Positions 1 to 9,000 of a stretch of DNA of 17,088 nucleotides are shown here, in pieces. Position 1 is the first letter of the stretch; each line of letters opens with the position of its first letter. The stretch comes from a virus (taxonomy: Duplodnaviria; Heunggongvirae; Uroviricota; Caudoviricetes): the IMG/VR virus record IMGVR_UViG_2690316115_000021, one strand, 5' to 3'. Position numbers: made by a program.

Positions 1-3000
1 TTACTCCACTCCCACTTTTTTGTTGTACTCGCGGTTAAAGCGATCCACGGCAACCTTCATATCCCGCTCTACCGATTTCACTATCGCCGCCTGCTGCGCC
101 AGACTGAGAGAACTGTCGGCATAAATGGCATCACGCTGTTTACGCAAATCCTTCAGTCTCTTCCGGGTATCCTGCATAAGCCCGTTCATCGACAATTTTC
201 CGTTGTTCTCGTCAATGAATGCCGTTCTTTCTGCACCGGTCAGACTCTTCAGCTCTGCGTGGTACTGCGCAACCTCCGTCATCCGGTCATACATCTTCTG
301 CTGGTCAGCATACGGCATCACCTCACCCGAAATTTTCCCCAGGAAGGGCACCTGCTGTTCCGGTATATCAATACCGTTCAGCGATTTCACCGCCGCATCT
401 GTGGTTTTGGAAATGAAGCGCCCTGTCCCTCCGGAGATATAGTCAATCCAGAATTTCAGCGATTCCGGTGTAATATCCACCGCGCCGGGACGATACTGGC
501 TGCCACCTGAGAACGCATTCAGCCAGGATGCAAACGCCTTGTACGCCTCAGGCGTTGAACGTCTGCCCAGCTGGCTGTCCGGTTTCGGTGTGCCAAATGG
601 CATGTTCTCCTGGTAAATCTGCGCCCCCATGAAGTTTTCATTCATGGCAAGGTTCGCAAACGGACGCAGAATGGTCGGCGCTGCATTTTTCAGCAATGCC
701 CCGGACAGTGTTTCCGACGTTTCACTGCCCACAGGACTGAATGCCCCCAGGATACCACCGACAACATTACCGGCAGCACGTGAAGCAGTCAGGTCGCCCG
801 CTGCCACACCTTCAGCAGTATGCCCGAGCAGGAAGAAAACGTTGTACCCGTAAGGCAGAGGAATACTCCAGTACTCTCCGGCCTTGCCCCCGAACACCGA
901 TTTCATAATGACGAGGTTACGCTCTTTCACATGAGACGGCACCTTGTCATACCAGTTAACCCCGTCATCATCCTCCCCCGCAACACTGCGGTTAAGCGAG
1001 CCAAGCAGATAACCCGCTCCCACAGCTGCAAGCGCGATTTTCTGCGGTACATTGAGATTCTTCCAGCGAAGGCGCTCCGGTAACGGCCCGTCGCCATTAA
1101 GATGTCCGAGCGTTCTCACCAGGTTTGCGGTCCCCTGAATGCTGGCGTTGGCAAACATATACAGCGAGTTCATCAGCGCTCCCTGCTCACCACGACGGTT
1201 AAAGTTCACCGTCATGTTTTTGGCAAGAGACGCCGCCTGCTGGCGTGACAAACCAGCATCACGGGCGTGTTTATAGGCAGAAAGACGCAGAGCGTTTTCA
1301 ACCGCCCCGTTGGCATCCTCGACAAGGTTAAGGAACGAATTCCATGCACCGATACTCTGGCCTTTCCATCCTCCCTTCGCCAGCGATACAAGGCGATCCA
1401 TTTCCTTCTGCTGGCCTTCAAGGTCACCCATGTTAAACCAGCCGGTTTTACCTCCGTCCTCAACAAACTCTTTCCACACCTTCTGCCACTGCGCACCGTT
1501 GCCCGTGAGGGTTTTACCACGCAGACGGGCGTATACGGCAGACATGGCAGACCGGCTGTCTTTCACCACAGCCAGGGCGGATAAGTTATCGAGCCCTTTC
1601 AGTTTACCGTCGCTCCTTCCCTGCTCCGCCTTCAGGTTCATCACCGCCGTCTGCACGTCACGGATGAAGTTACTGACCAGGAATTCCGGGTTATACGACG
1701 TGTTCACCGTTGCCAGGAAGCGGTTAACTTTCCCCAGCGTGCGGATTACGGCGTTACTGGTTTCCGGTCCCATATTCTTCATCGCACGCATCAGGCGCGG
1801 ATCATGGAGTTTGATGTAGTACGTTTTGCCGTTCTTTTTGGTGGTGAAGTACCGGTCTGCCATCATTGCCATCGGTACAGGACGTTCGACAACTTCGTGA
1901 CGGGTTTCACCGGTTTCCGGATCAACACGCTCTGCAATCGCACGCATGGTGTCCGGTCGCTCATTGGTGAATACCTGCCAGTAATCCTTGTCTGGATTAT
2001 CCTGTACCAGTTTCAGGAAGGCGTTACCTACTTCATTTTTGCGATTGCGGATCAGCGATTCGCTCAAGTCCTGTATCGCCTGAGTGGACGGAGACTGTGC
2101 GCGGGATGCACGCCCCATGGCCTGCCTGCTTTCACGTCCGCCGATAGTGAAGCCTTTACCTGTACGGGGCAGTGACACCACACCGTCAACATCCTGGCCT
2201 TTCAGAGGAACGTAGTAACGGTAGGCGTTCTGCCAGGCATCCACCACACCGCTCTCTTCCAGTCCGGCCTCACGGATAAGCTCACGGCGACGAGCCAGCA
2301 TATCGTCAACAATCCCTGCCAGACGGTCATACTGTGCCTGTTTGCCACTGTTACGCACACGCTGCATGATTTCCGCCGCTTCCGCGTTGGTCATCCCCGA
2401 ACCGCCGTCCGGCATTTTCGGGTTGATTTTCGCGATATGCGCGTTACGTTCCGGCGCGTGACGGGCGTAGAGGTACTCATCCAGATCGGCCTGCGCAATT
2501 TTGTAGTCCGCCAGTAATTTAGCCAGTGGCTGAACGTAGCGCTCCTTCATCACGTTCAGGTCGTTTTCCGCCTTCCCGTGGAAGAGTTCTTCCGCCATAT
2601 AAGCGTTGTTACTGTCGTCTATTTTTCCGCCAGTTTTACGGATATTCTCCTGAACAGCTTTCAGCACCTGGAATTTATCCTGCATCTGGCGCACAAAACG
2701 CGATGCAATTGTCTCTTCCGGTGTCAGACTGCTGGTACGGGAGTAATGCGGCCCCTTGCGAATATCTTCAGGATAGAGTATTTTATCCGCAGAGCCGCGA
2801 TAAGAATGTTCCCCTTTGGGCAATTGGAGCCCTCTGTGCAGAAGGTTATCGCGGCTTAATTTTTCTCTCCGGTACAACGTTAACCCGGTCATTTCCATAC
2901 TCTTCAGTTTTTTTCCATTTTCTGTACCGTAAACAGAAGCTACCTTGTTGATTTCCAGACGCGACCGGACAGCCTTCATGTGTACCGCTGACACCACCGG

Positions 3001-6000: not shown

Positions 6001-9000
6001 ATTCTCGCCTTTCTTCACTACGGACGGTTTCAGGCCGGTGGCGCTGGCATTGCGGAAAACGTCGCTCCCCAGAGCACTTTTTTCATCCGTGAAATAACGG
6101 TTGTCCGGACGCACCTTTTCAATGCGTTCTGCTGGTCTGGACGCACCACTCTCGTTAATTTCAATACGAACTTCATCCGGATCGCGGAACCGCACCGTCG
6201 GGTAAATACTCCCGTCGCCATCATCCGCATTTTCCGGCTGTGGCTGTGCCTCCGGTCTGGCCTCCCGCTGAGGGCGAAGCACATCACGTATTGCCTGTAA
6301 CTGCTGCTCTTCAGTATCAGTACGCCCTTCCTTCTGGCTGAGTTTTCGGTATTCCTCAAGCAGTTCAGGGCGCGGCTTCGCCTTCAGCTCATCCATCACC
6401 GCCTGTCGCTTCGCCTGTTCATCCAGTTCATTCAACAGCTGGCTGGCGGCTTCCCGGCGATGAACGGCAGACGTGTCTCCCTCATGTGCCATATCCGCAT
6501 CAGCATACTGTTCCAGAAGCTGCTCGCGATTCATCCCCTGCATAGATTCACGATGCTGTGCCACCGGATCAACCGGTTCGGGTTGCGGAGCCGATTCGTC
6601 CTGAGGAACGCTTTCAGCCTCACGCATGGCTGCTTCATCTGCCGCCTGACGTTTTCCACGATATCCGGCAGCCGCACCGAATGGTGCCCCCATTGCAGCA
6701 CCAAGGGCTGCACCTTCGATCGTTGCGTCAGCCACGCCCTCCCACGGTGACACATCCATTCCGGCGGTCTCACGCAATGCCGTGTTTTCCTGATAGCGTG
6801 AATAGCCACCCTGCGCCGCATTAATCGTCCCCTGTTCCGTGGCATTTCTGACAATGCCGCTTTTAACGGTCTTCGCCGTGCCCCGCATCGCCAGATTAAG
6901 CAACTGAGCATCGCCCAGTTTTGCCGCCATGGCATTCACAGCCAGCAATTCAGGATCGGTTGCCAGTTGCGCACGCACCTCATCGGCAACACGCTCTTTT
7001 GCCAGGTCCATTTTCTGGCGGTCAGTAAGCTGCGCGTGCTGCGGATCTGCATCAATTGACAAAAAGGTCTGCTGAAATTTCGGTGACTTCGCCAGCTCAG
7101 AATAATCCGCGTTAAGAACAGCATCTGCCGCTGCCATTGCACTCCGCCCTTGCGCACTGACAGTGGAATGGGTGATCAGGCCTGCCTGGAAAAAATCCGG
7201 CATTTTTTTATCGACAGCTTCGGCTGCCAGTGCTGTGGCTCTTTCCGGCTGCATCCCTGCCGCGATGTATTTTTTCTCCAGCCCGGCGGTCAGCACTTTT
7301 CGCAGAGTGACATCACCCAGCTTTTTAGTCACACCGCCTGCAACCATATCCGGTACAAGCGCACCAATCAGGTTAACCCCTTTCGCTACCCAGACCGCTG
7401 AATCATCATATCCTTCAGTCATCGGTGTATTCAGCGCCCGCTGCGCCCCCGGCGACATCTTGCCAGTCAGCCATTCATCCGAGGCTTTAGCGCCGCCACT
7501 GACTGCCTTGCCTGTGACCTTCAGACCTTTACCGACAGTATCAGTAACCGCATTTTTTCCATCAGGCAGAGTGTCGATGACCTCATCCGCCCCCTTGCTG
7601 CCACCGACAAAAATATCCTGAACAGTTGCTACTCCCGGCAGCCCCATACGGCTGAACTCATTTAAAATACGTGCCCCTGTTTTTACCGGGCTCTGAATCA
7701 TCGCATCACCGAGTCCACGGGCCATTTCCCCTGTCCCCCGGACGGACTGGGCGACACCTTTCCCCATAGTTGGCAATACATCGCCCAGGCTGAACGACGT
7801 GCTGTTGTCCTTCCAGCGATTGGGATCGGAGAAAAACACATCATAGCTGTCAGTCTCTCCCGGCTGCTGAATGTTCAGGCTGTTGCGGCTCTGGTTGCCA
7901 AATTGCGCTTCAGGGCGCTGTTCATCGGAATAAGCCATACAGACTCCATAAAAAAACCCGGCACAATGACCGGGTATCAGGAAATAGTATTAACGGGAAT
8001 GGTGAATTACTGCGCGTAATTCTGTTTCAGACCACGGATAAACTCAGATGCAGAGGCCGCGCTATCATCCCTGGCCTGTTCCCCCCTGGCCTTTTGAATA
8101 CGGAGAAAATTCGCATACCCGTGTTCCAGCAATTTCTGATTCTGAGGCTCCAGCATTTCTGGCTGACGGGAGGCCACTTCTCTGGCAAATGCCTGCTTAT
8201 CCGGATCATCACCCGCCCAACTGGTAATCCCTTGTTGAATTTTTTGCTGCTGAATTTGCTGCTGATACTGCGGCAGTCCCATCGAAGCATAATATTGCGT
8301 CACTGCTCCCTGCGCATCACCGCCGTCCTGTGCAACCTTTATCGCTACCTGGCTGGCTCCTTTCTGAAGTTGATCCGCAGAAAGTCCCTGCTGCTTCGGC
8401 GTGAAATAGCCGAAATTTTTCGAAATTTCCGCGAATTTACTGCGATCCCTGACAAGCTCAACAGCCTTATCAACAGGCACCGCCAGCACGGTTTGATCAT
8501 CAGGATGTGCACTGCCGTATTCCGTAACGGGTTTATGTGCTGTAGAGCCATCACTGTATGTGAGATCAAGGCCGATAAGTATGTACCCTTCCTGCTGTGC
8601 CGGTACTATACTGCCAATCCTGGCCTCTTTTATCGTCTTTTTCCCGGTTGAATCGGGCATGCCAATACGCTGTTGCAGTTCCGGGCCAAACACCCCGGAA
8701 AGGACATCAAGATTCTCCGGCGTATTAAGTGAAGCGATAGCCCTGTCTGGCTTGTCATCAAAGATTTTTTGCAGGTTGTTCACGGCCTGACCCGCTTTCG
8801 CTACATAGCCATCATTCGCCATCAGCCTCAGCGGATTACCCTCTGACAACTGGCCGTAAAGACGCATTGCTGCATCCCGATCGCCAGCATCCACAGCCTT
8901 TCCAAGCGCCGCCATCACAGGCTGATCGCGCGCCAGCATATCGTTATACTCAAGCCGTCGCTGGTTGTATTTCTGCATCCGGAGTCGCTGCTGCTCCATA

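Follow-up and report, generated by a model that had tools for sequence, protein, structure and literature searches.

What does a single gene that fills nearly half of a viral genome fragment do for the phage that encodes it? The question is raised by a 17,088-nucleotide (nt) stretch of DNA from a Caudoviricetes virus (IMG/VR record IMGVR_UViG_2690316115_000021; the whole stretch is called the window here), in which one uninterrupted open reading frame (ORF) of 2645 amino acids (aa) occupies 46.5% of the sequence. An ORF of this length cannot be a chance product and, because its homologues also number in the hundreds in sequence searches and peptides of an orthologue have been recovered from virions, we regard the gene as real. 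A GGAG Shine–Dalgarno sequence lies 5 nt before its ATG. We consider it probable that the encoded giant protein is packaged into the virion and ejected from it as a membrane-anchoring delivery protein, whose cargo is a zincin and a predicted ribonuclease (RNase). An initial annotation, made from the sequence alone, had described a single complete ORF at the late gene block's distal end and had divided its product into an N-terminal region, an acidic and proline-rich linker, a central HEXXH motif and C-terminal glycine-rich hydrophobic stretches. The ORF listing and translation, the gene tables of related prophages, and composition and motif analysis agree with this description in every part.

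The giant ORF is the orthologue of ORF80 of the Shiga toxin (Stx) phage Sp5 (ECs1242, 2793 aa) and of gp47 of phage phi24B (a 2811-aa frame), the giant virion protein of Stx phages; the large ORF of 933W is a further orthologue, and all of them share position and Pfam domains with the window protein. At the DNA level, the gene is 95–96% identical over 100% of its length to 186 Stx-converting phage records, including Stx2a phages, and 95–96% identical to Escherichia coli prophages in hundreds of genomes. Protein identity to phi296 is 87–100% per 100-aa slice, and the match to PHROG 616 scores 5805 bits. The window also follows the gene order of phi24B, gene by gene: the ORF of 567 aa corresponds to the nozzle gp57, that of 422 aa to the needle gp56, those of 218, 150, 83 and 421 aa to gp51, gp50, gp49 and gp48, and the giant ORF to gp47. 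Virion genes, including those for the nozzle and needle, lie upstream of the giant gene on the same strand. In the gene tables of phi296, O103:H2 12009 and contigs with the exact protein, the giant gene follows the 421-aa gene as the final late gene and adjoins the prophage end. The exact 2645-aa sequence is present in NCBI (for example, CTS58479.1), and the identical protein occurs on at least 24 contigs, invariably beside sap/puu genes. The source of the window is thus likely to be a 933W/phi24B-type (Sepvirinae) Stx-phage prophage. RefSeq names the gene ‘LPD38 (or LPD5) domain-containing protein’. From the literature and this annotation, the giant protein is already known in kind and domain content; the initial annotation had considered the exact domain content not readable from the sequence alone.

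Two bodies of work on orthologues bear on function. In Sp5, ORF80 belongs to a set of nine essential morphogenesis genes; deletion of it yields DNA-filled heads that are not bound by tail-fibre antibody and form no plaques, and the neighbouring ORF79 (421 aa) is likewise essential, with the same deletion phenotype (PMC5155283). In phi24B, gp47 was detected by virion proteomics, is absent from the cryo-electron microscopy (cryo-EM) maps and was proposed by the authors to be an encapsidated ejection protein, for which they list the domains LPD5, LPD1, LPD38 and MuF-C (bioRxiv 10.64898/2026.04.10.717836). In the supplementary table of that study, gp47 has 10,962 peptide-spectrum matches (PSMs), a count that only the capsid protein exceeds, and its peptides span residues 133 to 2504. 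The lumen of the phi24B adaptor contains density without an assignment, which is gone after ejection. Peptides of gp47 were found in many gel bands below full size, in a sample that had been stored for six months and for which totals rather than a per-band map are given.

Cysteine content sets the giant protein and its neighbours apart. There is no cysteine among the 2645 residues of the giant protein, and none among the 3,517 residues of the five-gene block formed by it and the four genes directly upstream. In 65 giant relatives, including their enzyme cargo, we counted 6 cysteines in 189,617 residues, and the proven ejection proteins of T7 (gp14/15/16), N4 (gp50/51/52) and P22 (gp7/20/16) have 1 in 7,864, compared with 0.2–2.7% in the other proteins of the same three phages. 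Most window genes outside the block contain cysteine (8 residues in the 567-aa nozzle, 5 in the 208-aa protein and 2 in the 245-aa Lom protein); the exception is the 422-aa needle gene. Because cysteine is excluded from the five-gene block as it is from the ejection proteins of T7, N4 and P22, we assign the block to ejection-type proteins. The near-total absence of cysteine is an empirical signature that was computed here and not a published criterion, and we found no paper that states cysteine exclusion as a rule for ejection proteins. Virions of phi24B yielded all five block products, and the cryo-EM tail model, as the text of that study describes it, includes none of them. The four upstream proteins are probable co-ejected partners of the giant protein.

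Two of these partners have been given other names. In the phi24B table, the 421-aa protein, orthologous to phi24B gp48 and to the essential Sp5 ORF79, carries the label ‘Transcription factor?’; it is apparently the ‘transcription regulation factor’ set aside as a contaminant in that study. It has 1634 PSMs (in the batch sample, 179 versus 101 for the portal) and seems to be a true internal or ejection protein. The 83-aa protein, a ‘bacteriocin’ in RefSeq, contains no cysteine and ends in a long glycine zipper (GTGIGTGAAMGAAVGGLPGAAIGAVIGGIAGSLF); it is weakly represented in phi24B virions (13 PSMs) and is encoded inside the virion-internal gene block. Instead of a bacteriocin, it may be an ejection component that inserts into membranes.

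A second line of evidence comes from the N-terminal 430 residues (N-module), which belong to no Pfam family. This module is rich in glycine and alanine, has its most hydrophobic stretch at aa 181–199 and ends in a glycine zipper. An exhaustive HMMER search with it returned about 100 representative clusters, in which nearly all long matches are the N-termini of proteins of 2000–4665 aa. A profile hidden Markov model (HMM) built from 66 such N-termini matches residues 231–559 of gp50, the virion RNA polymerase of phage N4, with 39.4 bits (E of about 2e-8 for a million-sequence space). As controls, 500 shuffles of the N4 segment scored at most 3.2 bits, and 735,000 decoy residues scored at most 5.0 bits. 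The same HMM found no match in the ejection proteins of T7 and P22. The N4 enzyme has an N-terminal domain that binds lipid and inserts into nanodiscs, with a low-complexity linker after it (PMC13434306). Judged by the profile match, the N-module and this lipid-binding domain of the ejected N4 polymerase appear to be homologues.

The linker that follows the N-module is 19% Asp and Glu and 9% Pro, with a net charge of -32, and we found no tandem repeats in it. Beyond it, four Pfam domains score above their gathering thresholds: LPD5 (1.5e-43), LPD1 (4.8e-23), MuF_C (1.4e-17) and LPD38 (3.1e-48). LPD5 and the zincin form one conserved unit (aa ~896–1430). The NCBIfam family CLCA_X (NF041907), the zincin family of Lenart et al. 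2013, matches aa 1172–1427 with E=4e-44 and covers profile positions 3–245 of 250, so that Pfam LPD1 is the C-terminal part of the CLCA_X zincin. The giant protein has only one HExxH, HEWFH at aa 1274, and its catalytic motif is intact: H1274, E1275, H1278 and D1281 are invariant in 60 homologues, down to 30% identity. Members of CLCA_X, including Bbp10 of Bordetella phage BPP-1, share the conserved HExxH followed by Asp and the zincin fold and occur in long phage and plasmid proteins; the spacing is HExxHxxD here and HExxHxxxD in Lenart et al. 2013. The predicted model of the domain resembles MtfA and anthrax lethal factor, consistent with a zincin fold. We also observed LPD5 plus zincin as stand-alone proteins of about 570 aa, located beside an H-NS-like gene, PcfJ and a Sno-type helicase of about 1700 aa, a neighbourhood that suggests integrative or conjugative elements. 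These stand-alone proteins contain 0.32% cysteine and so are not cysteine-free.

MuF_C is the second cargo domain. It corresponds to the PBECR domain, a predicted RNase, according to Iyer et al. 2017, and is called a metallopeptidase instead in the phi24B preprint (bioRxiv 10.64898/2026.04.10.717836). Conservation of H1604 and S1668 is at least 90% across 35 diverse homologues, and the pair agrees with the active-site pattern of PBECR; model confidence for the region is low. A GLQLP motif at the boundary between cargo and C-module is conserved to the same degree (at least 90%) in the 35 homologues.

The C-terminal part of the protein (C-module) is kept as a unit at 34–57% identity, and its predicted model has a predicted template modelling score (pTM) of 0.80. 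It includes glycine-rich, moderately hydrophobic stretches at aa 2301–2405. We found it in phages of Vibrio, Ralstonia (GP4-like), Burkholderia and Bacillus megaterium and in a Methanosarcina virus. The homologue in this archaeal virus, MetMV (MK170447.1, 40102–42492), is 28% identical over 88% of the length (E=2e-81), a surprising host range for a module that is thought to act on the Gram-negative envelope. Relatives of the giant protein have the same N- and C-modules around a methyltransferase, a Sno or SNF2 helicase, ddrB-ParB, or LPD5 plus zincin. The family plan is an N-module, a swappable cargo, a small domain with an RHE..HH motif and then a C-module of about 950 aa. Among the homologues listed by the word-index search, none exceeds about 1660 aa, and full-length relatives were taken from the representative search.

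These data can be assembled into the following scheme. During assembly, several copies of the giant protein would be placed inside the T=9 head, loosely folded as ‘beads on a string’. Release of the central needle would let the protein pass out, unfolded, through the portal and tail channel, before the DNA or along with it; the absence of cysteine fits unfolded passage through the oxidising periplasm. By homology and analogy, the N-module would insert into or anchor at the envelope and, together with the four small cysteine-free upstream proteins, may lengthen the short tail into a conduit across it. The acidic linker would tether the cargo, that is, LPD5 with the CLCA_X-type zincin and the MuF_C/PBECR predicted RNase. 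Once delivered, the predicted protein-cleaving metallopeptidase may cleave either its own polyprotein or a target in the host, and the PBECR domain may cut RNA. The C-module, as the constant part of the family, is probably required either for the protein to be taken into the head or for the conduit.

Several observations weigh against this scheme. The Sp5 phenotype, in which particles are not labelled by tail-fibre antibody, is a morphogenesis defect, unlike that of classical P22 ejection-protein mutants; it fits a protein that must occupy the portal or tail lumen if the tail is to attach stably, yet it is also the chief support for a role in assembly. The link to N4 is visible by profile only, as single-sequence phmmer and jackhmmer searches of the fetched proteins with the N4 N-terminal domain gave no match, and a large term for compositional bias enters the profile match. 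None of the hydrophobic segments of the giant protein reaches classical transmembrane hydropathy. The CLCA_X score of 150.9 bits lies below the curated NCBI cut-off of 260; on sequence grounds, the zincin is best described as related to CLCA_X within a larger protein, not as an equivalog. The C-module has no structural counterpart in the PDB, and the role given to it above is a guess. Finally, the window allele lacks a domain that 59 of the 65 giant relatives retain, in a form absent from the complete E. coli genomes and phage records that we searched, and it may be defective.

The last point concerns a segment by which the window allele departs from its orthologues. Compared with the full-length alleles of Sp5, phi24B and 933W, 414 nt (138 aa) are missing in frame after aa 1426. 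In full-length alleles, this segment is flanked by two 14-nt direct repeats in the same frame, which encode LKTR-E/D; the window retains a single copy. Because the Salmonella orthologue retains the segment, the shorter form is a deletion, and the window allele, which fails to carry the complete domain set of the Stx-phage group, is a deletion variant. The lost segment holds a second His–Glu motif, RHEIIHH, and corresponds to a mini-domain of about 105 aa (phi296 aa ~1440–1577; consensus ...VHAFY..VVLVADN....LRxKLRHEiLxHHGL..VVGD.EY), which lies just upstream of the C-module in relatives. Its invariant R-H-E and H suggest a metal site, as far as the sequence can indicate. The mini-domain has no Pfam model and no match in the PDB. 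We do not call it a peptidase, as the matches to metallopeptidases are weak and below threshold (Peptidase_M76, 0.03–0.05; MATCAP, 0.005 in one member). LKTR(E/D), which in full-length alleles marks both edges of the mini-domain, and GLQLP are possible processing sites.

It is possible, although we think it less likely than not, that this copy of the gene is in decay within a cryptic prophage: a slippage deletion would have taken a core domain, and the reading frame would survive only because the repeats share a frame. The deletion falls exactly between the two repeats, the lost mini-domain is widely kept, the segment is present in all 28 complete E. coli genomes and both phage records that span the junction (the window junction is in none of them) and the allele occupies a single chromosomal site, consistent with one clone. 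However, the remaining 7.9-kb ORF has acquired neither a stop codon nor a frameshift, and the neighbouring virion genes in the window are all intact. The recurrence of the identical protein on many contigs also speaks against decay, and 6 of the 65 relatives likewise do without the mini-domain.

A different function was suggested by the initial annotation, which took the protein for a candidate polyvalent protein, packaged and injected to counter host defences, of the DarB-like, ArdC- or metallopeptidase-containing kind. The class assignment stands: LPD5, LPD1, MuF_C and LPD38 in a virion-gene setting are those of the polyvalent proteins of Iyer et al. 2017. No tape-measure, RHS/YD or adhesin repeat domain, any of which in a protein free of enzymatic domains would have spoken against that class, was found by Pfam, NCBIfam or PHROG. 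Packaging also holds, for the phi24B orthologue, by virion mass spectrometry; injection we infer. In its strict form, in which the protein is a dispensable injected anti-defence effector with no structural role, we regard this reading as improbable. It draws on the polyvalent-protein domains, on relatives whose N- and C-modules enclose methyltransferase, helicase or ddrB-ParB cargo as in P1 DarB and DdrB, on the stand-alone LPD5 plus zincin gene in neighbourhoods resembling integrative and conjugative elements (with Sno helicase and PcfJ) and on a Ralstonia phage homologue that is annotated ‘DarB-like’. Yet the Sp5 orthologue is essential and its deletion has a particle-assembly phenotype, which does not fit a dispensable accessory, and an abundance in virions that, by PSMs, only the capsid protein exceeds looks structural. 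Pfam also detects no methyltransferase or helicase (E up to 1) and neither ArdC-N nor MPTase-PolyVal in the giant protein, which removes the comparisons with DarB and ArdC. Judged from its domains, the cargo could possibly serve anti-defence besides the essential role of the protein, but this cannot be its whole function.

Least probable, in our view, is that the protein serves as a factor for tail assembly in the course of morphogenesis, possibly with use of energy, and is not ejected. Sp5 ORF80 and ORF79 mutants do package DNA without binding tail-fibre antibody, but this tail defect is explicable if stable attachment of the tail depends on an internal core or plug. Purified virions would not be expected to hold an assembly chaperone as one of their most abundant proteins, the phi24B tail could be modelled completely without gp47, and the cysteine-free signature and homology to the N4 N-terminal domain point to ejection. 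The use of energy was suggested by Mondal et al. from a match to the AAA+ family COG1483; as the giant protein has no ATPase domain in Pfam or NCBIfam and no Walker A motif, we ruled out this idea.

The favoured reading, a packaged and ejected delivery protein, can be compared with several known systems. One of them is N4 gp50 (3500 aa, Schitoviridae), which is ejected and is likewise giant, cysteine-free and invisible in virion reconstructions, in addition to sharing the N-terminal domain by profile. It carries an RNA polymerase as cargo where the giant protein has LPD5, zincin and PBECR; the two phages belong to different families and virion types, and the C-module HMM does not match gp50. 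Similar to the giant protein, T7 gp14/15/16 and P22 gp7/20/16 are internal podovirus proteins that are required for infectivity, are cysteine-free and are encoded in small clusters beside tail genes. The giant protein is far larger than these, shares no sequence or fold similarity with them and has no lytic transglycosylase domain; HMMs of the C-module, mini-domain and LPD5 plus zincin gave no significant match to the ejection proteins of T7, N4 or P22.

Phage-type polyvalent proteins (Iyer, Burroughs, Anand, de Souza and Aravind 2017) likewise combine several domains in one polypeptide encoded among virion genes. Iyer et al. 2017 leave LPD1, LPD5 and LPD38 without a function, whereas LPD1 is here part of the zincin. 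The giant protein differs further in its N-module and RHE..HH mini-domain, for which there is no Pfam model, and in that its orthologue is essential rather than accessory. DarB and DdrB of P1 are large, packaged in the head and injected, and relatives of the giant protein carry cargo of their kind (DarB-like methyltransferase plus helicase, or ddrB-ParB). The window protein lacks those domains, and its ‘DarB-like’ PHROG match covers aa 2203–2533 of the C-module only. A sequence search of the whole giant protein against PDB chains gave no match below E=0.5.

More tentatively, and with somewhat less than even confidence, we propose that LPD38-type giants and N4-type virion RNA polymerases form one super-family of cysteine-free delivery chassis, in which a membrane-anchoring N-module and a disordered tether would carry any enzymatic cargo through a podovirus tail. 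In the LPD38 branch, the chassis would further comprise the RHE..HH mini-domain and a C-module of new fold, the window allele would be a natural in-frame knockout of the mini-domain, and the absence of cysteine could be used to predict ejected proteins from genomes. Shiga toxin genes are spread by short-tailed Stx phages, and the giant protein is the leading candidate for the missing trans-envelope device of these phages. New here are the link to the N4 lipid-binding domain, the cysteine signature, the chassis of N-module, mini-domain and C-module with swappable cargo, and the mini-domain deletion. The first three make the ejection hypothesis easier to test and direct attention to the zincin motif, the PBECR His/Ser pair and the mini-domain.

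Table 1. Coordinates of the giant gene, the segments of its product and neighbouring features in the window
Feature	Position (nt)	Strand	Remarks
Giant ORF, 2645 aa	1–7938	minus	ATG 7938–7936, TAA 3–1; orthologue of Sp5 ORF80/ECs1242 and phi24B gp47
N-module, aa 1–430	6649–7938	minus	Conserved at the N-terminus of giant phage proteins; no Pfam family
Glycine zipper, aa 401–426 (GVADATIEGAALGAAMGAPFGAAAGY)	6661–6738	minus	End of N-module; G401, G413, G417 and G421 at least 80% conserved
Acidic, Pro-rich low-complexity linker, aa 431–895	5254–6648	minus	Poorly conserved; insertions and deletions in the Salmonella orthologue
Helical region and LPD5, aa 896–1190 (Pfam LPD5 1047–1190)	4369–5253	minus	First half of the conserved LPD5 plus zincin cargo module
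CLCA_X-type zincin, aa 1172–1430	3649–4425	minus	Includes Pfam LPD1 (1351–1430)
HEWFHSLD, aa 1274–1281	4096–4119	minus	
Deletion junction, aa 1427–1431 (LKTRD)	3647–3660	minus	Single copy of the 14-nt repeat CTGAAAACCCGTGA
Mostly helical region, aa 1431–1590	3169–3648	minus	No domain assigned; low model confidence
MuF_C/PBECR predicted RNase, aa 1591–1700 (Pfam 1602–1691)	2839–3168	minus	H1604 and S1668 conserved
GLQLP motif, aa 1703–1707	~2818–2832		After MuF_C
C-module, aa 1735–2645	4–2736	minus	Conserved, mostly helical, about 900–950 aa; contains LPD38
Pfam LPD38, aa 2328–2533	340–957	minus	Overlaps Gly-rich hydrophobic stretches aa 2301–2405
Terminator-like hairpin and T-run, then GGAG Shine–Dalgarno	7944–7975	minus	Hairpin and T-run 7975–7956, GGAG 7947–7944; directly 5' of giant-gene start
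Five-gene block (four upstream genes and giant gene)	1–10649	minus	No cysteine
Four cysteine-free genes, 218, 150, 83 and 421 aa	8007–10649	minus	phi24B gp51, gp50, gp49 and gp48; directly upstream of giant gene
421-aa gene	8007–9272	minus	
83-aa gene	9283–9534	minus	
hok/gef-family toxin ORF, 46 aa	11199–11339	minus	
Lom-family outer-membrane gene	11572–12309		
Low-G+C stretch	~11500–13500		

Some further features of the window accompany the giant gene. The hairpin between the 421-aa gene and the giant gene (ACCCGG-tcattgtg-CCGGGT, followed by seven T) might reduce expression of the giant gene relative to the genes upstream. A scan of the window against Rfam returned no RNA family at gathering scores. 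The stretch that spans the Lom-family gene and the 208-aa and 92-aa genes has a G+C content of 42–43%, compared with 52–57% on either side, and resembles a moron-type insertion that separates the needle gene from those for the ejection proteins. Between the Lom gene and a 133-aa gene is the small hok/gef-family toxin ORF, which is annotated as Hok/Gef in related prophages.

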